Shown piece by piece: positions 857-16,779 of a stretch of DNA of 25,963 nt. The DNA is from a virus. Within the stretch, counting starts at the first letter, position 1; each line of letters starts with the position of its first letter. The notes under the pieces were generated by a model that saw nothing but the letters and a program-made list of their open reading frames with translations, did no database searches and was not told where the DNA came from. The stretch is taken from UHGV virus genome UHGV-1408657; one strand, 5' to 3'. The translations under genes were made by a program, and so were the position numbers.

Positions 857-1389
857 TGAACCCGAAACACCAGATTGTTGTTGGGTTGCTGCTGGTGGCC
901 GTCGCATTCATCGCCGGCAGTGTATGGAGCAGTCGCGGGTGGGAAAAAAAGTGGGCGGAACGTGACAGCGTGGAATCATCGCAAACAGCGAACGCACAGA
1001 CCGCTGCCCGCATGATTGAACAAGGGCGCATTATTGCCCGTGATGAGGCTGTAAAAGATGCACAAGCGCAAGCCGCTAAATCTGCTGCCACTGCTGCTGG
1101 TCTGTCTGCCACTGTTAGCCAGCTGCGCACCGAAGCAACAAAACTCGCTACCCGCCTGGACGCCGCAAAGCACACCGCAGATCTTGCCGCTGCCGTCAGA
1201 AGCAAAACAACCGACGCCGACACCAGAATGCTCGCCGACATGCTCGGAGATATTGCAGCAGAAGCTAAACGTTATGCTGGAATCGCTGACGAACGCTACC
1301 GTGCCGGAATGACATGTGAACGCATTTACGATTCGGTGAGACAGTCGAATAACGGGAAGTGGCAAAAAGCGGGGACGAATCCCCGCTAG
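856..1389 (+). CDS. Rz: Rz-like inner-membrane spanin (i-spanin)
   Basis: ORF-track start 853 is TTG; ATG at 856 overlaps the endolysin stop (TGATG). N-terminal TM helix ([18 protein letters not shown]) then Ala/Gln-rich coiled-coil-like periplasmic domain; position right after the endolysin. Confidence 0.75.
1058..1312 (+). CDS. Rz1: Rz1-like outer-membrane lipoprotein spanin (o-spanin), embedded out of frame inside Rz
   Basis: ATG at 1058; signal peptide with lipobox-like LLASC; proline-rich mature part ([25 protein letters not shown]); wholly embedded in the +1 frame of Rz, the classic lambda Rz/Rz1 architecture. Confidence 0.7.
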
Positions 1390-1392
1390 CTG

Positions 1393-1608
1393 TTAGCCAA
1401 CTTTGCGATAAGGGTAGCCAGCTTTTTTGATGTGGGCATCAAAATACTGACCTTTTGACGGTGCATTCATTAGCGCTGTGTGCACGGCAGAAGGAACCCG
1501 AGAGTATTGATAAATGCCACTGCTATGGAATGCAATTTCCAGCGTTGAAGTGGCCGGGTCATAACCTACTGATTGGAGATTTGAAGATGAAACAGGTTGA
1601 CGAATCAA
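1393..1608 (-). CDS. KTSC-domain protein (moron, opposite strand to late operon)
   Basis: 71 aa; matches the KTSC pattern as I recall it (SSNLQSVGYDPATSTLEIAFHSSGIYQYSRVPSAVHTALMNAPSKGQYFDAHIKKAGYPY). Start codon is TTG with GAGGAA 6 nt upstream on the minus strand. Confidence 0.7.
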   Translation of the reverse strand: MIRQPVSSSNLQSVGYDPATSTLEIAFHSSGIYQYSRVPSAVHTALMNAPSKGQYFDAHIKKAGYPYRKVG

Positions 1609-1757
1609 AGCAGTTTCCTCGTTTGAATGGGAAAAGTCCCGAGGAAATCGTAGAGCTATTCAAAGGGTATAACTTTGTCGACGATCATGGTCATCGACTG
1701 GATATGTGCCAGGACTTCATTGACTTAGTAGAGATGGCGACCGAAACAGATAAGTAG
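1587..1757 (+). CDS. hypothetical small acidic protein (56 aa)
   Basis: ATG 1587 preceded by GGAG (ttGGAGatttgaagATG); the ORF-track ORF 1455-1757 has a non-ATG start. Its first 22 nt overlap the 5' end of the minus-strand KTSC gene head-to-head, so only one of the two starts may be genuine. Confidence 0.35.
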   Translation: MKQVDESKQFPRLNGKSPEEIVELFKGYNFVDDHGHRLDMCQDFIDLVEMATETDK

Positions 1758-1794
1758 CCATTCCAAAGCTCATCTGCGGATGGGCTTGATAATT

Positions 1795-1830
1795 GTGACT
1801 CCCAAGTCAAACCCGTGATTGTGGTAAAAT
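1795..1830 (+). promoter_or_regulatory. candidate sigma70 promoter with extended -10 (TGgTAAAAT) upstream of the 79-aa ORF
   Basis: TG at 1822-1823, one nt, TAAAAT 1825-1830; poor -35 (gTGACt about 1795-1800); about 28 nt upstream of ATG 1859. Sequence reading only. Confidence 0.3.
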
Positions 1831-1858
1831 TTAAAAAATCATCAACACGGGGGTTACC

Positions 1859-2098
1859 ATGGAAAATTGTACGATTTCGTTACGTGTTACGCCTGGAATC
1901 AGAGTGAATGCTTTACGTATAAAAGAGGAAAACGGCGAAGTAAATTACTTCATTGGCAGGGGGCCTGTGTCAGAAATGATTTTCCCTAAAATTCCCTTAG
2001 GAGCACTCCTCGATGTTGATATCGACTCTAATGCAAACATTCGCCTTATGTATCTCGGCTATGAAAGTGAAGACTACATCTTAACGAATGACTTCTAG
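1859..2098 (+). CDS. hypothetical protein (79 aa), AT-rich moron
   Basis: ATG 1859 with G-rich stretch (ACGGGGG) upstream; AT-richer than the flanking phage core; followed by a hairpin terminator. No recognisable motif. Confidence 0.5.
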   Translation: MENCTISLRVTPGIRVNALRIKEENGEVNYFIGRGPVSEMIFPKIPLGALLDVDIDSNANIRLMYLGYESEDYILTNDF

Positions 2099-2144
2099 AA
2101 GACGCATACAAGACCGTCTAAAGGCTATTTTTCATTGCCATCGC

Positions 2145-2170
2145 AAAGGCCACCTTCGGGTGGCTTTGTT
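2145..2170. terminator. hairpin between convergent genes (possible bidirectional intrinsic terminator)
   Basis: AAAGGCCACC-TTCG-GGTGGCTTT followed by TTTGTTGTT on the + strand; lies between the 3' ends of the + ORF 1859-2098 and the - ORF 2212-2643. Confidence 0.5.
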
Positions 2171-2211
2171 GTTGCCATCACCATGGGCAGACCCATCGTG
2201 ATGGCTTTAAT

Positions 2212-2643
2212 TTATAGAAGTTGGGCTTTAACAGCGGCTTTGACCAACTCGTCCATGAAGTGATTTTCGAGGTTGTCAGCATAATCAATAGAGATTGATG
2301 GCGCCTCTGGCCTGCTTGGGATAGTCATCGTATTATCGCTATCGATGTGGAAAACAGCAAACTTGATAATATCGTCCTTCTGCTTGATGCAGAAGGCTAT
2401 TTCAGCTATCGGCTGATTTCCTATGAACTTAATCTTCGTCTTACTGAAGCAGTGGAAATCGCATTGCGGAATATTAATCTCAAGCTCATCATTCTCCATC
2501 ACAAAGGTGATCTCGCGATTAAGTGTTTTTGAACGACTCCAGTAATTGTACACGCGGTCAAATAGGCATTTTTTCTTAAAAAGTATGTCTTCTCCCTGCA
2601 ATCCCAGGGCTCGCGATAGTGTTGCAAATTTCAGTATTTCCAT
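2212..2643 (-). CDS. hypothetical protein (144 aa), minus-strand moron adjacent to terS
   Basis: ORF-track ORF 2212-2670; preferred start is the internal ATG (MEILKF...) at 2643 preceded by GGAGTGATT on the minus strand. No signal peptide, no motif I recognise; AT-rich; transcribed opposite to the late operon. Confidence 0.55.
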   Translation of the reverse strand: MEILKFATLSRALGLQGEDILFKKKCLFDRVYNYWSRSKTLNREITFVMENDELEINIPQCDFHCFSKTKIKFIGNQPIAEIAFCIKQKDDIIKFAVFHIDSDNTMTIPSRPEAPSISIDYADNLENHFMDELVKAAVKAQLL

Positions 2644-2663
2644 AATCACTCCATAGGTTTTAC

Positions 2664-3236
2664 ATGGCACTTACCGACAAACAGGATATGTTCTGTCGTG
2701 AGTACCTCATCGATTTAAACGCCACTCAGGCAGCGATTCGTGTGGGGTACAGCGCAAAAACTGCTAACCGTACCGCTACAAAATTGCTGTCAAAAGCTGT
2801 CATTCAAAACAGGATTGCTGAACTCAAAGCGAAGCGCAACGAGGATGTGGGCATTGATGCCGATTATGTGCTTCGGCGCTTGGTTGAAATCGACCAGATG
2901 GATGTTCTGGATATCCTCAATGATGACGGCAGCCTTAAGCCGATCACCTCATGGCCAAAGGCCTGGCGAATATCGCTAACCGGCCTGGACATCAGCACCA
3001 CGATTCAGAACTTCGACGAGGAGACGGCGGAAACCATCCTCAAAAAAGTTAAGTGGCCTGACAAAGTGAAGAACCTCGAGCTACTCGGCAAGCATGTATG
3101 CGTCCAGGCGTTCAAAGAGCAGGTTGAACAGAAAGTCGTAGCGACTCATAACGTCATGCTGGTGCCAACCAGCGACAACGTGGATAGCTGGGAAGCCGCA
3201 GCACAGAAACAGCAGAGCGAGGTTCTTGGTGGATGA
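2664..3236 (+). CDS. terminase small subunit
   Basis: N-terminus MALTDKQDMFCREYLIDLNATQAAIRVGYSAKTA is the characteristic helix-turn-helix start of the Terminase_2-type small subunits; immediately upstream of and overlapping the large subunit gene. Confidence 0.8.
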   Translation: MALTDKQDMFCREYLIDLNATQAAIRVGYSAKTANRTATKLLSKAVIQNRIAELKAKRNEDVGIDADYVLRRLVEIDQMDVLDILNDDGSLKPITSWPKAWRISLTGLDISTTIQNFDEETAETILKKVKWPDKVKNLELLGKHVCVQAFKEQVEQKVVATHNVMLVPTSDNVDSWEAAAQKQQSEVLGG

Positions 3237-4804
3237 ATTACAAAGCTGTCTGGAAACCTTTGCCGGGATCACAATCGCTCTCCCTTAGTTGCCCGTGTAA
3301 CGAAATCCTCTACGAGGGAACACGCGGGCCGGGTAAAACTGCCGCTCAGTTAGCGCGCTTCCGTCGTCTCGTTGGCCTGGGCTATGGCTCGTTCTGGCGC
3401 GGCGTCATTTTTGATACCGAGTATAAAAACCTCACCGACATCATCACCCAGTCAAAGCGTATGTACCGCCTGTTTAACGATGGGGCGCGCTATCTGGCGT
3501 CAGCATCTGAACTGCGCTGGGTATGGCCGACTGGCGAAGAGCTGCTCTTTCGATTCGGGAAAGAAGAGAGTGACTACTGGGACTACCACGGTCAGGAGTT
3601 CCCATTCATCGGATTCAACGAGCTGACCAAGCAGCAGTCTGCTGAGTTCTACGAAATGATGTTCTCCTGCCGACGCTCGTCGTTCCGGCCAGAGAATTAC
3701 CCGCTGGATGATGGCTCGCTGCTTAAGCCGATCCCGCTGGAGACGTTCAGCACCACCAACCCGTTTGGCATCGGCCATACTTGGGTGAAGAAACGCTTCA
3801 TTGAGCCAGCACCGCGCGGCACTATCATTCGCGAAACGCAGAAGGTGTTTAACCCGCAGACCGAACGCGAAGAGGATGTGACGCTGACGCGAGTGGCTAT
3901 TCACGGCTCGTTCAAAGAGAACCCGTATCTCGATCCCCAGTACATCGCAACGCTGATGGCCATCAAAGACCCTAATCGGCGCAAAGCGTGGGTAGAGGGC
4001 TCGTGGGATGTCACCAGCGGCGGACGCTTTGACCACCTGTGGAATGCCTCACTGCACGTTATTAAGCCGTTCCGCATCCCGGATAGCTGGACGGTCGACC
4101 GCTCCCATGACTGGGGTGAGTCGAAGCCGTTTTCTAATCTCTGGTGGGCGCGCGCCGACGGTACCGCCGCAGAGTTGCCCGACGGTCGCCAGTTCTGTCC
4201 GCCTGCCGGGTCGCTGATCCTGATTGGAGAATGGTACGGCTGCCCGCCTGATGAGCTCAACAAAGGCCTGAACATGTCATCCACTAACGTCGCCAGAGGC
4301 GTGGCGTGGGTGGATAAACGGCTGGTGGGCGAGGAACTGGCAGAACCCGAAGAGATAAAGCTCAACGGAATCACTCAGGGGCAACTGAACATCATGCCCG
4401 GCATCTGCAAGAAAATTGTTGCTGGCCCTGCTGACGGTGCGATCTATAACACCGGCGATGATGAGTTATCTATTGCGCAGAAGATGGAATCACAGGGCGT
4501 TAAATGGGTTCCATCCAACAAGAAACCGGGATCGCGTGTGAACGGCGCGGCCCTGTTTGCTGACATGCTAGAGGCCGTCATTGAGGGCAAGAAGCTGGAA
4601 TCTGGCACTCCTGAGAAGCCAGCATTCTACGTATTCGACTACTGCCGTGGATGGATAAGCCGCGTGCCGGTGCTCGTTCGCGACAGTAAGAACCCTGATG
4701 ACGTTGATACCCAGCAGGAAGACCACGACTGGGATGGTACGCGATATGCCGTCCTGCATTCACCGCCGAAGAAAGTCGGCAAAGTCACCAACCTGAGGCT
4801 CTAA
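3233..4804 (+). CDS. terminase large subunit
   Basis: 523 aa; Walker A-like GTRGPGKT near N-terminus; start ATG overlaps terS stop (ATGA); size and position typical. Confidence 0.9.
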   Translation: MNYKAVWKPLPGSQSLSLSCPCNEILYEGTRGPGKTAAQLARFRRLVGLGYGSFWRGVIFDTEYKNLTDIITQSKRMYRLFNDGARYLASASELRWVWPTGEELLFRFGKEESDYWDYHGQEFPFIGFNELTKQQSAEFYEMMFSCRRSSFRPENYPLDDGSLLKPIPLETFSTTNPFGIGHTWVKKRFIEPAPRGTIIRETQKVFNPQTEREEDVTLTRVAIHGSFKENPYLDPQYIATLMAIKDPNRRKAWVEGSWDVTSGGRFDHLWNASLHVIKPFRIPDSWTVDRSHDWGESKPFSNLWWARADGTAAELPDGRQFCPPAGSLILIGEWYGCPPDELNKGLNMSSTNVARGVAWVDKRLVGEELAEPEEIKLNGITQGQLNIMPGICKKIVAGPADGAIYNTGDDELSIAQKMESQGVKWVPSNKKPGSRVNGAALFADMLEAVIEGKKLESGTPEKPAFYVFDYCRGWISRVPVLVRDSKNPDDVDTQQEDHDWDGTRYAVLHSPPKKVGKVTNLRL

Positions 4805-13057: not shown

Positions 13058-13362
13058 GGCAGGTCGCCGCAGCGTTGTACACGCCGGGACCGACTCTCGC
13101 GGAACTGAGCGCTTTTGGTTTGACGCCTGAGGACGTGGAGGAAGAGGTGGGGATCCTGCCGTCGGTATGGAAAGCCTTCACTATCTTCTCCACGCTGGCG
13201 ACTCAATGGCGCGTTGGCGCGGGTGGGGCGACCGGCCTTGATTACAACGTTCTCCCTTGGGTGTTTGAGTTACACGGGGTTGAGGATGCGGCGGCCTGCA
13301 TGGCTGACCTTCAGATTATGGAAAGCGAGGCTCTCAAAGTAATGCACAAGGAGACGAAATAA
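13054..13362 (+). CDS. gpT-like extension, expressed only as G-T fusion via -1 frameshift
   Basis: The -1 frame continues ...EKKLRQVAAALYTPGPTLAELSAFGLTPEDVEEE... to a stop just before the tape measure ATG; no independent RBS or ATG. Confidence 0.7.
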   Translation: MRQVAAALYTPGPTLAELSAFGLTPEDVEEEVGILPSVWKAFTIFSTLATQWRVGAGGATGLDYNVLPWVFELHGVEDAAACMADLQIMESEALKVMHKETK

Positions 13363-16300
13363 TGACAGACCAAATCGCCTCGATCACATTGCGTGCTGAC
13401 GTATCCGATCTGAAAACAGCCAGCAATGAACTGGATAAACTCGGTGAAGCCGCGGCGGGTGCCGTCGGCAAAGCTGATGACCTCAACAGCGTATTCCGTG
13501 CTGGTGCTGAGTCTGCGAAGCAGGGCAGCGAAGGTATCAAAGAGCAGCAGATGGCGCTGAAAGGCCTGCTGGAGAATATCGACCCGGTAAACAAGGCGCT
13601 TAACCGGCTGGATGAACAGCAGGCCGCCCTGCGTAACTTCCAGACCAAAGGCTTCCTGGATACCGATGATTTTCAGCACTACAACAAAATCCTCGACGAT
13701 ACGCGGCTAAAGCTGACGGATACCGGCGAAGCTGCTGCCAGGGCACAAGCCGAACTGGCAGCGACTCAGGCCGCTGAGAAGCAGTCCGCTGCGCTGAAGA
13801 ACCTGCTGGGCTCTATCGACCCGACGATCCGCGCATTCAACTCACTGGATGAGCAGCACGCGCAGCTGGTGGCGCATTTCGAAGCTGGGCGCATCAACGG
13901 CGCGCAGTTCGAGCACTTCAATACAATCCTCAACCAGACGCGGGAGCGTCTGTCTGGCGTGGCTGACGTGCTGCCAGAGGCACTATCCCGACAGGAAGCA
14001 GCGGCGCGTCGTGCCGGTATATCGGTCGGCCAGTACAGCGCCGCGATGCGCACGCTACCAGCACAGTTCACAGATATCGCCACACAGCTGGCTGGCGGTC
14101 AGTCGCCGTTCCTGATCCTGCTGCAACAGGGTGGGCAGATTAAAGACCAATTTGGTGGGGTTAAAGGGGCTCTATCGGGGGTGGGCGACTATTTACGCAC
14201 TCTGTTAGGTTTCATTAATCCTATAACGATAGGTATTAGCGGCCTGGTTGTAGGCCTCGGGGCGATGGCTGTAGCTTGGTACAAAGGCAGCCAGGAAGCC
14301 AGTGAGTTTAATAAGCAGCTCATACTCACGGGTAATTATTCGGCCAGTTCGGCGAGTCAACTGTCAGACATGGCTCAAAAAATTGGAGGCTCCAGTGGTA
14401 AGGTTGCGGCTGCCGCTCGGACGCTCGCGGATGTGGTTGGGGTAGGGACGTTTAAAACGGAGCAGCTCGAAACAGTTACCAGGGCGGCGCTGGCGATGCA
14501 GGAGGCCACTGGCCAGTCTGTTGACGCCACCATTAAGAACTTCCAAAAGCTGTATGCCAGCCCAACCAAGGCGGCGGAGGATCTTAATTCTACGCTCCAT
14601 TTTCTTACCTCATCGCAATACGACTACATTTCGGCACTGGAGCGTCGGGGTGATAAAGAGGGAGCAGCAGAGGAGGCTGCAAAAGCTTATAGCCTAGCCG
14701 AGCAAAAGCGCAGCCAGCAAATCCTCGACAACATGGGATTAATTGAGAGAGCTGCTGGTAGCGTCAGCAAGGCCCTTAAGGGGATGTGGGATGAACTTCT
14801 GAATATTGGTCGCCCTGAAGCTCCGAACGACATGCTCCGCAAGATGCAGTCCGAACTTGCTGAGCGTGAGAAAGCCTTGCTTCCAGATAGACAGCGTCAG
14901 GGATATGGATATAGCTATGATGCGAGCAGTAACGATCAGGAATATGACGCACGTAGGAAAGCTCAGTTATCAGCGATAAGTGCTTTAAAGGCACAAATAG
15001 CGCCACTTCAGCAAGCTGCTCAGCTTCAGGAAGATATTAATGCTTCTATTCAGCAAGGAACCGAGGATGATAACAAGCGAACTAATGCCCTGATTTATCG
15101 AAACCGCATCCTTGAACAGTCAGCTACATGGCAGGAAAAACGCAGCAAGGCCCTGTCTGAACTTTGGAAAAATGTCGCGGCCTCGCCCGGCGACTGGAGC
15201 TCAGCACAGCGGCAGCAGGCTGTAGATGCCATTAATAAACAGTTTCATCCGGACAAAACTCCCAAAACTCCAGCCGTTAAGGTTTCAACAGGTGATCGCT
15301 CAACCGACACCTACAATGCTGAGACTCTAGCTCTGCAAGCGCAGCTCAAAACGCTGCAGGATCATCGTGACATCAACGATGTAATCAGCCAGCAGCGTAA
15401 GCAGCAGTGGGAGTTAATCTCAAAAATCACCATCCTCGAGTCCACAGCTAACGATCCGAAAGGGCGTGCATTAACTTTCGATGAAAAATCGTTGCTGGCG
15501 AACAAAGAGAAGCTGCTGGCCCAGGCAGATATTAATGCCGGACTGGGTGATCAAATTGCCAAGCAGCAAAAATTGAACTCATTGGCTGACCAGGCAACTA
15601 AGTTCGCCCAGCAACAGTCTGCCAAGCAGGCGGAAATTGCGGCAGCAGCTAGAGGCTTGTCCACCAGAGAGGCTGAAAGGGAGGCGACGCGCCAGCGCCT
15701 GACTGAATCCTACGGCTTTAACCAAGACGCTCAGAAAAAGGTTCTCGCAGATCAAGAGGAGACCTACCGGAAAGAAGATGAACTTCGCAGCGACTGGCAG
15801 GCTGGCGCAAAGCGGGGCTGGGCCGATTATGCCGACTCAGCAACAAACACGTTTGAAGCAATGCGAAATGTGGCCGGTTCAACCTTCAGTGGTCTATCCG
15901 ACATGTTGACAGATCTGGTTACTACCGGCACTGCAAGCTTCAAAGACTTCACCAAGTCCATGTTGAAGATGATCGCGCAGGTAACGAATCAGTTGCTTGT
16001 GGCTTACGCCGTTCAGGCTGCGATGGGGTGGATTAGCGGTAGTGCTGGTGGCAACACGCCAGGCGGAGCATATGCCAGCGCTGCAAACTCTGGAGTTAGC
16101 CTGTTTGATTCCGGTGGTTACACAGGTGCGGGCGGTAAATATGAACCCGCAGGCATCGTGCATAAAGATGAGTTCGTTTTCACCAAAGAAGCCACTAGGC
16201 GGATCGGCGTAGATAACCTATATCGTCTAATGAACAACGGTAATTTAGGCCGTTACGCTTCTGGTGGGCTTGTTGGGGGAAATCAGGCTGGGGCGGCAGA

Positions 16301-16493
16301 CTCTGGTGTGCCAATTATCAGCGTCAGTTTTGGTGACATAAACATTGGTTCAGGTGGACAGGCCAATACAGGTGGCTCAGCAAATGCTGCAGCTATTGGC
16401 AGGCAACTCAACGATGCGATGATTGACACCATTAATACTCAAGTAAGAAAACCAGGCACTCCGCTGTGGAATGCCGTTAGAGGGAAATACTAA
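13362..16493 (+). CDS. tail tape measure protein
   Basis: 1043 aa, Ala/Gln/Glu-rich coiled-coil N-terminal half, hydrophobic central segment (FLILLQQGG...GLVVGLGAMAVAW), Gly-rich C-terminus; follows G/G-T. Confidence 0.9.
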   Translation: MTDQIASITLRADVSDLKTASNELDKLGEAAAGAVGKADDLNSVFRAGAESAKQGSEGIKEQQMALKGLLENIDPVNKALNRLDEQQAALRNFQTKGFLDTDDFQHYNKILDDTRLKLTDTGEAAARAQAELAATQAAEKQSAALKNLLGSIDPTIRAFNSLDEQHAQLVAHFEAGRINGAQFEHFNTILNQTRERLSGVADVLPEALSRQEAAARRAGISVGQYSAAMRTLPAQFTDIATQLAGGQSPFLILLQQGGQIKDQFGGVKGALSGVGDYLRTLLGFINPITIGISGLVVGLGAMAVAWYKGSQEASEFNKQLILTGNYSASSASQLSDMAQKIGGSSGKVAAAARTLADVVGVGTFKTEQLETVTRAALAMQEATGQSVDATIKNFQKLYASPTKAAEDLNSTLHFLTSSQYDYISALERRGDKEGAAEEAAKAYSLAEQKRSQQILDNMGLIERAAGSVSKALKGMWDELLNIGRPEAPNDMLRKMQSELAEREKALLPDRQRQGYGYSYDASSNDQEYDARRKAQLSAISALKAQIAPLQQAAQLQEDINASIQQGTEDDNKRTNALIYRNRILEQSATWQEKRSKALSELWKNVAASPGDWSSAQRQQAVDAINKQFHPDKTPKTPAVKVSTGDRSTDTYNAETLALQAQLKTLQDHRDINDVISQQRKQQWELISKITILESTANDPKGRALTFDEKSLLANKEKLLAQADINAGLGDQIAKQQKLNSLADQATKFAQQQSAKQAEIAAAARGLSTREAEREATRQRLTESYGFNQDAQKKVLADQEETYRKEDELRSDWQAGAKRGWADYADSATNTFEAMRNVAGSTFSGLSDMLTDLVTTGTASFKDFTKSMLKMIAQVTNQLLVAYAVQAAMGWISGSAGGNTPGGAYASAANSGVSLFDSGGYTGAGGKYEPAGIVHKDEFVFTKEATRRIGVDNLYRLMNNGNLGRYASGGLVGGNQAGAADSGVPIISVSFGDINIGSGGQANTGGSANAAAIGRQLNDAMIDTINTQVRKPGTPLWNAVRGKY

Positions 16494-16717
16494 TGAAAAT
16501 TGCAGAAGTAAAGGTCTCTGATGTTGTTTGGTATGCCAACGAAAATGGAAAGGCGATCAGTGCCTTCGTGACTTTCTATGGCCCAGACGATTGCACTCGC
16601 ATTGCAAGTGTCCCTGTTAACTTGCCATATCAGCTAGACCTGACCCTTAAGCAAGTTGAAGAGCTTGCCATTGCCACTGCTAAGGGTACGCTAAAAGCGG
16701 TCGCTACTAGTTTCTGA
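16493..16717 (+). CDS. hypothetical protein (74 aa), translationally coupled to tape measure stop
   Basis: ATG overlaps the TMP stop (TAATG); no motif recognised; sits where lambda has gpM directly after H, so it is extra relative to the canonical tail order. Confidence 0.5.
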   Translation: MKIAEVKVSDVVWYANENGKAISAFVTFYGPDDCTRIASVPVNLPYQLDLTLKQVEELAIATAKGTLKAVATSF

Positions 16718-16779
16718 TCGTTACATCCCTATCTCCCCTGGTTATCATGAGAAAAAACATGATAATCATGGGGATGATA

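Follow-up and report, generated by a model that had tools for sequence, protein, structure and literature searches.

In the virus genome UHGV-1408657, of which we analyzed a stretch of 25,963 nucleotides (the window, whose positions are used throughout except where another locus is named), a gene that we call orf143 lies on the minus strand immediately ahead of terS, the small-terminase gene that opens the packaging module. Comparison with related loci indicates that orf143 occupies a slot whose boundaries are fixed, an intrinsic-terminator-like hairpin plus a conserved 32-nucleotide inverted repeat (the 32-mer) on one side and the start of terS on the other, and that this slot receives exchangeable antisense cargo from at least 32 unrelated, mostly uncharacterized families. 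We are highly confident of this anatomy, in which orf143 is accessory cargo in a conserved hotspot. As to what such an arrangement is for, the reading that we find best, and toward which we lean slightly, is that orf143 is a lysogeny-expressed accessory gene occupying a dedicated slot and silenced by convergent late transcription.

A cargo slot abutting terS

The features of the slot and its right flank are as follows.

2144 to 2173, plus strand: GC-rich stem-loop with a T-rich tail, resembling an intrinsic terminator by folding, directly before the 32-mer
2174 to 2205, plus strand: conserved 32-nucleotide inverted repeat GCCATCACCATGGGCAGACCCATCGTGATGGC (given also as GCCATCACCATGGGCAGACCCATCGTRATGGC), the left slot boundary, unique in the window
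2212 to 2643, minus strand: orf143, encoding a soluble 143-amino-acid alpha/beta protein, the slot cargo; ATG start with a GGAG Shine-Dalgarno sequence, 20 bp from the terS ATG at 2664
2644 to 2663, no strand assigned: divergent intergenic 20 bp holding both Shine-Dalgarno sequences (GGAG for orf143 and, on the other strand, AGG for terS), with conserved spacing
2664 to 3236, plus strand: terS, Terminase_2 family, 190 amino acids, opening the packaging and head module (Pfam PF03592, E = 9e-37; phrog_51)
2664 to 2813, plus strand: first ~50 codons of terS, the right slot boundary, with suppressed synonymous variation; candidate cargo promoter and 5' untranslated region and/or packaging signal

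The evidence for exchangeable cargo comes from loci with related terminases. Among 80 IMG/VR loci whose terS is 66 to 96% identical to that of the window, 77 had enough upstream sequence to be assessed, and in 72 of these a divergent open reading frame (ORF) starts 15 to 70 bp from terS. These terS-proximal ORFs belong to 27 unrelated families of 44 to 218 amino acids, with the orf143 family accounting for three of the 80 loci. Under a stricter call (ATG start, at least 57 amino acids), 65 of 75 loci qualified, compared with 10% at random anchor positions. Both boundaries could be located in 89 loci, which yielded 54 distinct slot sequences of 258 to 1,964 bp. Their cargo is almost always one, and sometimes two, minus-strand genes, and when pooled with the terS-proximal ORFs of the related loci it forms 32 families. 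The domains identified among these proteins are DUF2158, DUF4145/HEPN (in one family), DUF6173, DUF6953, and LRAT, to which inspection of the sequences adds one lipoprotein and several membrane proteins. The closest deposited terS, at 80%, belongs to Cronobacter phage phiES15 (L017; JQ780327.1), where an unannotated 72-amino-acid ORF (3261 to 3479 on the minus strand of that locus) starts 21 bp from terS and is closely similar in sequence to slot family F20 (IMG/VR L080).

The left boundary lies between the convergent ends of orf143 and its neighbor orf79. Here an earlier first-pass annotation of the sequence had noted a hairpin; hairpin structure is indeed present, in the form of two hairpins rather than one (2144 to 2168 and 2174 to 2205), with folding z scores relative to shuffles of -4.6 for the late strand and -4.7 for its complement. 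The same annotation gave orf143 a length of 144 residues. The gene is there, and 144 is its number of codons including the stop, for a product of 143. Its description was otherwise accurate: the start lies 20 bp from that of terS, the ribosome-binding site (GGAG) is good, no export signal is encoded, and the position is that of lambda bor, with orf143 placed between Rz and terS and antisense to the late operon. In phage lambda, bor lies between Rz and the terminase genes, is oriented opposite to the late operon, and encodes a serum-resistance lipoprotein.

In most related loci the terminator position is occupied by a stem and then TTTTTTATT, directly ahead of the 32-mer on the late strand, with the stem itself varying in sequence. 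The T-tracts of the hairpins past orf143 are found on the late strand only, which fits termination of orf79 and not of orf143. The 32-mer is located a few to some tens of nucleotides past the stop codon of single-gene cargoes, whatever the cargo family. The sequence is conserved in the arms and hypervariable in the 4-nucleotide center, and one C·A mismatch recurs in most copies, a pattern suggestive of recognition by sequence and not of a simple hairpin. We found the 32-mer in at least 119 IMG/VR contigs (L127 to L245), in a few deposited phages (Salmonella phage Oslo, L246; Enterobacter phage CobraSix, L247), and in 5 of 5,426 Escherichia coli genomes. Among the matches listed that have recognizable flanking genes, it always lies between a lysis cassette and terminase genes, and the modules that it separates are diverse, with at least four types of lysis cassette, terS genes of the Terminase_2, DUF2280, and other types, and at least four types of terL. 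The repeat is unannotated, and it has no match among the RNA families of Rfam.

The right boundary is equally regular. All close orf143 alleles, together with a homolog that is 34% identical (L020), keep the GGAG and a spacing of 20 to 21 bp from terS, and for most other cargo families the spacing is 15 to 37 bp. Because a gap of this size holds just the two Shine-Dalgarno sequences, any cargo promoter should lie inside terS. The 5' end of terS is constrained at synonymous sites. Across 71 unique terS sequences, normalized synonymous entropy is 0.31 to 0.48 in windows over codons 2 to 53, and from codon 54 onward it is mostly 0.7 to 0.86 (range, 0.60 to 0.86). Over codons 1 to 50, synonymous diversity is at about half the level of the remaining gene, and Ser43 is encoded by TCA in 99% of variants. 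The constraint could be the mark of an embedded antisense promoter, of a packaging (pac) site, or of a recombination anchor.

Association of orf143 with the slot

Loci encoding an identical orf143 protein share a constant terS-terL-portal-MuF side, and on the other side they have at least three different lysis cassettes and differing small genes. Nucleotide homology between the window and these loci starts at 2129 to 2150, that is, at the first (terminator) hairpin. Recombination at the junction is indicated by the discordant divergences of orf143 and terS. Between the window and L031, synonymous divergence (dS) is 0.20 for orf143 versus 0.88 for terS; between the window and L028, dS is saturated for orf143 versus 0.59 for terS.

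Distant homologs, which are 16 to 34% identical, retain both the location between lysis genes and a Terminase_2 terS and the orientation against the late operon, and two of them are accompanied by a second gene in the same orientation. A further homolog is on a 1.2-kb contig and is known only as divergent from a terS. In L040 (3673 to 4000) an unrelated gene resembling small terminases has taken the place of the Terminase_2 terS, and an intact ATG with about 19 codons of the old terS is still attached to orf143. The same orf143 allele is present in L041 to L043, which have no detectable Terminase_2 terS; the 5' remnant is that of L040. One lineage is found in another setting altogether, at the prophage end after the tape-measure gene, beside alternative Abi_2/acetyltransferase or PemK/helix-turn-helix cargo, so that association with packaging is not obligatory for this protein. 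Taken together, these comparisons indicate that orf143 travels with terS, not with the other three genes of the region, and that it is tied to the slot abutting terS.

The orf143 protein

Searches of 5.8 billion proteins identified homologs of orf143 in 14 clusters from Citrobacter, Enterobacter, and Raoultella, 143 to 144 amino acids long and 51 to 100% identical. With a profile, 1.84 billion cluster representatives gave 15 matches at an E value of ≤0.001, of which 13 are 143 to 148 amino acids long, one is 69, and one is a 1,624-amino-acid protein matched over a short stretch. The family is carried by 1 of 185,579 species-representative genomes and is found at 17 IMG/VR loci. Pairwise ratios of nonsynonymous to synonymous divergence (dN/dS) in unsaturated comparisons are 0.06 to 0.24, versus 0.05 to 0.09 for terS. 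By these values orf143 is a real gene under purifying selection; the possibility that it is a disrupted remnant was rejected given this selection and conservation of the full length. Its GC content is 0.42, versus 0.51 to 0.56 in the terminase genes.

No match to orf143 was found in Pfam, PHROGs, NCBIfam, PADLOC, or a PDB sequence profile. When 20 family members were searched against Pfam at an E value of ≤10, only scattered single matches were returned, and a tblastn search of 50,697 deposited phage genomes at an E value of ≤1 returned nothing. The protein has no transmembrane or signal segment; its maximum hydropathy over 19 residues is 0.83, and there is no hydrophobic stretch at the N terminus. 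Identification as a Bor/Iss lipoprotein was rejected, there being no signal peptide or lipobox and no homology to Bor or Iss.

The AlphaFold model is confident (predicted local distance difference test [pLDDT], 86; predicted template modeling score, 0.81) and is an alpha/beta sandwich, with a long helix at the N terminus, a sheet of six antiparallel strands, and a further helix at the C terminus. A Foldseek search of the PDB with this model found nothing. Its sole significant viral structural match is an uncharacterized 151-amino-acid protein of Burkholderia phage Mana (A0A873WDE3; template modeling score, 0.76), which corresponds by size to CPT_Mana_015 (gp15; 9269 to 9783 of L027, MT701591.1). 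That gene lies between tail-completion genes and a gpV-like tail spike gene, with an annotated terminator behind it, and would be another moron-like insertion sharing the orf143 fold. An alignment of the orf143 family with the Mana structural analog in hhalign was not significant and so leaves sequence homology unsupported. Across the wider orf143 family just three residues are invariant (P59, F84, and A137), which makes a conserved catalytic site unlikely; the protein is most likely nonenzymatic and acts by binding a protein. Two further candidates were set aside. The cysteines C61 and C65, invariant in the close family, are not conserved in distant members and were rejected as a metal site. 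Neither membership of the frataxin/CyaY sequence family nor the acidic iron-binding ridge of those proteins was found in orf143.

Other accessory units between lysis genes and terminase

A moron is an independently transcribed accessory gene in the late region of a phage (Juhala/Hendrix; Cumby et al. 2012, cited in PMC9122126). The first-pass annotation described positions 1393 to 2660 as a single moron island, and much of that description stands. Reading of the sequence and the ORF listing agree on four small genes, on both strands, between Rz (which ends at 1389) and terS (which starts at 2664). The AT-richness of the region is real, with a GC content of 0.43 over 1393 to 2660 versus 0.53 in the lysis genes, 0.53 in the whole window, and 0.56 in terL; taken singly, the four genes have values of 0.40 to 0.45 versus 0.51 to 0.56 in terS and terL, a deviant base composition such as morons have. 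Comparison with related prophages bears out that the gap carries accessory, non-core genes, and the cassette varies across related loci, including those of closely related prophages. What does not hold is the unity of the island: the KTSC-domain gene with orf56, orf79, and orf143 are separate mosaic units with independent distributions. Positions 1393 to 2660 thus appear to be the variable region separating lysis genes and terminase in a lambdoid, Citrobacter-type prophage, and they hold three or more accessory units that move independently of one another. As phage accessory genes, the four are of an ordinary kind. With the exception of the KTSC/orf56 part, the island is absent from complete E. 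coli genomes.

According to Pfam and PHROGs, the left flank encodes a holin, a lysozyme, and a DUF2514 Rz-type spanin, and the right flank begins with the Terminase_2 terS. An 84-amino-acid ORF lies out of frame within Rz (1058 to 1312, plus strand); it has a signal sequence and the lipobox LLASC, as expected of an Rz1-type outer-membrane spanin, and it has no Pfam match. The remaining features of the region are the following.

1393 to 1608, minus strand: KTSC-domain gene, 71 amino acids, TTG start, isoelectric point 9.6, with GAGGA ahead of it (Pfam PF13619, E = 2e-25)
1587 to 1757, plus strand: orf56, a small acidic protein with an isoelectric point of 4.6, in the orientation of the late operon (phrog_18255, E = 5e-35)
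1767 to 1786, plus strand: hairpin AGCTCATC-TGCG-GATGGGCT, which travels with orf79 and is conserved ahead of the 72%-identical orf79 homolog
1822 to 1830, plus strand: candidate extended -10 promoter TGgTAAAAT for orf79, invariant in the alignment of upstream regions
1859 to 2098, plus strand: orf79, a small acidic protein predicted to be all beta, restricted to Citrobacter (three homolog clusters)

The KTSC match (88.7 bits over residues 7 to 63, with a Pfam cutoff of 25) holds for the gene at 1393 to 1608 only; KTSC has been described as a DNA-binding domain (PMC9503650). The 5' end of this gene and the start of orf56 overlap by 22 nucleotides on opposite strands. Homologs of orf56 form 66 clusters across Enterobacterales. 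The two genes are always paired, with overlapping 5' ends, beside differing spanin types and terminases (L046, 3504 to 3862; L134, L152, L160, L164, L182, and L217). In E. coli H5 they lie beside a DUF2280 terS, and an identical-sized match is present in H6. Their constant co-occurrence next to different spanins and terminases suggests a two-gene unit. Like orf143, neither orf56 nor orf79 has a match in Pfam or NCBIfam.

Homologs of orf79 form only three clusters, all from Citrobacter, which are 72 to 99% identical and have a conserved N terminus; the AlphaFold2 model of the protein is unreliable (pLDDT, 45). The most divergent homolog (72% protein identity) lies in a Nu1/GpA-type prophage that lacks KTSC, orf56, and orf143. 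In the alignment of upstream regions about 100 bp are conserved, including the hairpin and TGgTAAAAT, and the -35 region differs. The candidate extended -10 promoter, already picked out in the first-pass annotation, thereby gains the support of conservation, although the motif is absent from the output of our two-hexamer promoter scan. Given this conserved upstream stretch, orf79 appears to have the classic layout of a moron on the late strand, with promoter motif, gene, and terminator.

The window holds a second accessory cluster at 16493 to 18364, between the tape-measure gene (13362 to 16493) and the gene for minor tail protein M (18442 to 18792). It contains a 74-amino-acid ORF, a predicted lipoprotein of 147 amino acids (16747 to 17190, lipobox LTAC), a 165-amino-acid Fic/Doc-family protein (17867 to 18364) with the Doc-type motif HPFANANKR, and a possible 59-amino-acid antitoxin reading frame ending at 17856.

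DISCUSSION

Our results point to an architecture in which expression of slot cargo could be coupled to the phage life cycle. The cargo would be transcribed from a promoter within the first ~150 nucleotides of terS. In the lysogen, the terminator would halt unmodified transcription arriving from the lysis side, and expression of the cargo would proceed undisturbed. Upon induction, late transcription antiterminated by Q would pass the terminator and run head-on across the cargo, which would be silenced by polymerase collision and antisense RNA. Exchange of one cargo for another would take place through homologous recombination in the two conserved flanks. We rate the chances that orf143 is expressed specifically in the lysogen as even. 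Its most probable role is one that benefits the lysogen, such as superinfection exclusion or anti-phage defense; a role in defense itself, suggested by position and orientation, is put forward tentatively. More speculative still, and in our judgment unlikely as a whole, is the broader proposal that the slot is a dedicated cassette platform, with a promoter embedded in terS, with the terminator and 32-mer serving as insulator and recombination anchor, and with its 32 or more families forming a reservoir of new single-gene proteins for anti-phage immunity or exclusion that are switched off on induction.

Several observations weigh against the proposal of a lysogeny-expressed cargo gene. In a two-hexamer scan and with a weight matrix applied to 70 terS variants, nothing resembling a sigma-70 promoter for orf143 rose above the shuffled background; the top-scoring candidate, TTGACA-15-TACGGT at 2793 to 2767, scored 10.0 versus a shuffled maximum of 7.9 ± 1.8. 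A pac site or a translation-initiation structure could account equally well for the synonymous constraint at the 5' end of terS. The restriction of T-tracts to the late strand leaves the end of the orf143 transcript unexplained. With respect to defense, the gene-wide dN/dS of orf143 carries no arms-race signature, the commonest slot occupants are tiny proteins such as DUF2158, and PADLOC gave no significant match for 31 representatives (30 of the cargo plus orf143).

Alternatively, slot cargoes including orf143 could serve the lytic cycle, by modulating TerS or packaging, by host takeover, or by countering host defenses, and be expressed during infection. The coupling to the terS start is tight, at 20 to 21 bp in close alleles, and the association with Terminase_2 terS persists down to 16 to 20% protein identity. 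The nucleotide-level constraint in terS could be that of a pac site, and the failure of any cargo to match a known defense family fits this view as well. Yet the one slot is shared by 32 unrelated families and orf143 is missing from most phages whose terS is near-identical, so that no single cargo can be needed for packaging. In addition, one orf143 lineage resides far from any terS, next to Abi_2 or PemK cargo, the antisense orientation means that late transcription opposes expression of orf143, and recombination in the conserved flanks explains the association with terS. For these reasons we consider a lytic function improbable. We give a similarly low weight to the idea that orf143 is lysogenic-conversion or hitchhiking cargo unrelated to defense, whether as a factor in host physiology or stress or as a selfish gene retained through linkage. 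This idea draws on the generic nature of frataxin/CyaY-like and chaperone-like sandwich folds as binding scaffolds, on the rarity of the orf143 family in the genome and cluster searches described above (1 genome and 15 representative clusters), and on the precedent of bor, the classic occupant of the analogous position in lambda, which is not a phage-defense gene. A neutral passenger, however, fits poorly with the strong purifying selection seen among alleles whose synonymous sites are saturated, and for conversion there is no positive evidence pointing to any particular host function.

A last alternative, which we regard as very improbable, is that orf79 and orf143, which converge on shared hairpins, function as a pair, such as toxin and antitoxin or effector and immunity protein. 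The two genes are neighbors with convergent 3' ends both in the window and in a number of Citrobacter prophages. But orf143 is present without orf79 in L001, L007, L009 to L016, and others, orf79 is present without orf143 in the Nu1/GpA-type prophage, and a mosaic breakpoint lies between them. A type II toxin-antitoxin pair was accordingly rejected, since each gene occurs without the other rather than being inherited with it. We retain, with the reservations set out above, a lysogeny-expressed accessory gene as the best reading of orf143.

Parts of this arrangement have counterparts in other phages. Like lambda bor and other morons, orf143 is a gene of the nonessential type with deviant base composition, situated between Rz and the terminase genes, antisense, and variably present; orf79 shares with morons the layout of promoter, gene, and terminator. 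Unlike bor, orf143 has no lipoprotein signal and no homology to Bor or Iss, and its insertion point is not arbitrary but a fixed slot with conserved boundary elements. The closest parallel in organization may be the defense hotspots of P2 and P4, which directly adjoin the packaging site cos and hold many alternative systems (2022, PMC9122126). As in those hotspots, a narrow locus with conserved flanks, next to packaging genes or a packaging site, accommodates many unrelated and mostly small cargoes that differ between close relatives and are presumably exchanged through recombination in the flanks. The differences are nonetheless considerable. The phages with the terS slot are lambdoid and have a Terminase_2 terS, and the slot is bounded by the terminator with the 32-mer and by the terS start codon; it is known to adjoin the start of terS, whereas the P2 and P4 hotspots adjoin cos. 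Slot cargo is nested antisense in the late operon, with a promoter that is apparently inside terS. Moreover, P2 and P4 cargoes have been shown experimentally to defend (PMC9122126), whereas no slot cargo matches a known defense system. For the regulation that we propose, antisense genes nested in phage operons, which make these operons noncontiguous, offer a precedent, in that convergent transcription regulates them reciprocally and ties immunity to the phage life cycle; regulation of this kind was demonstrated for tha/ith of Staphylococcus aureus phage 80alpha (PMC11087260). There, however, the nested gene is an inhibitor within the cI operon, while orf143 is nested in the late operon and would be regulated in this manner only by analogy.

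What our analysis adds to the catalog of phage accessory genes is the architecture, a conserved antisense slot abutting terS with defined boundary elements and at least 32 mostly uncharacterized families. The slot can be recognized by a simple rule: the 32-nucleotide repeat, followed by one antisense gene, followed by terS. Lying between lysis and packaging modules, the repeat itself may mark a site of module exchange or of RNA processing. If the mechanism that we propose is true, the slot would represent a simple design for life-cycle-coupled expression, in which an antisense gene nested in the late operon and transcribed from a promoter within terS is active in the lysogen and shut off once induction occurs. 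Should the slot further prove to be a platform for immunity genes, the automatic shutoff of cargo on induction would avoid self-targeting. More generally, if slot cargoes are expressed by lysogens, the region between the 32-mer and terS would be a compact and easily spotted place in which to find new single-gene prophage functions in Enterobacteriaceae.

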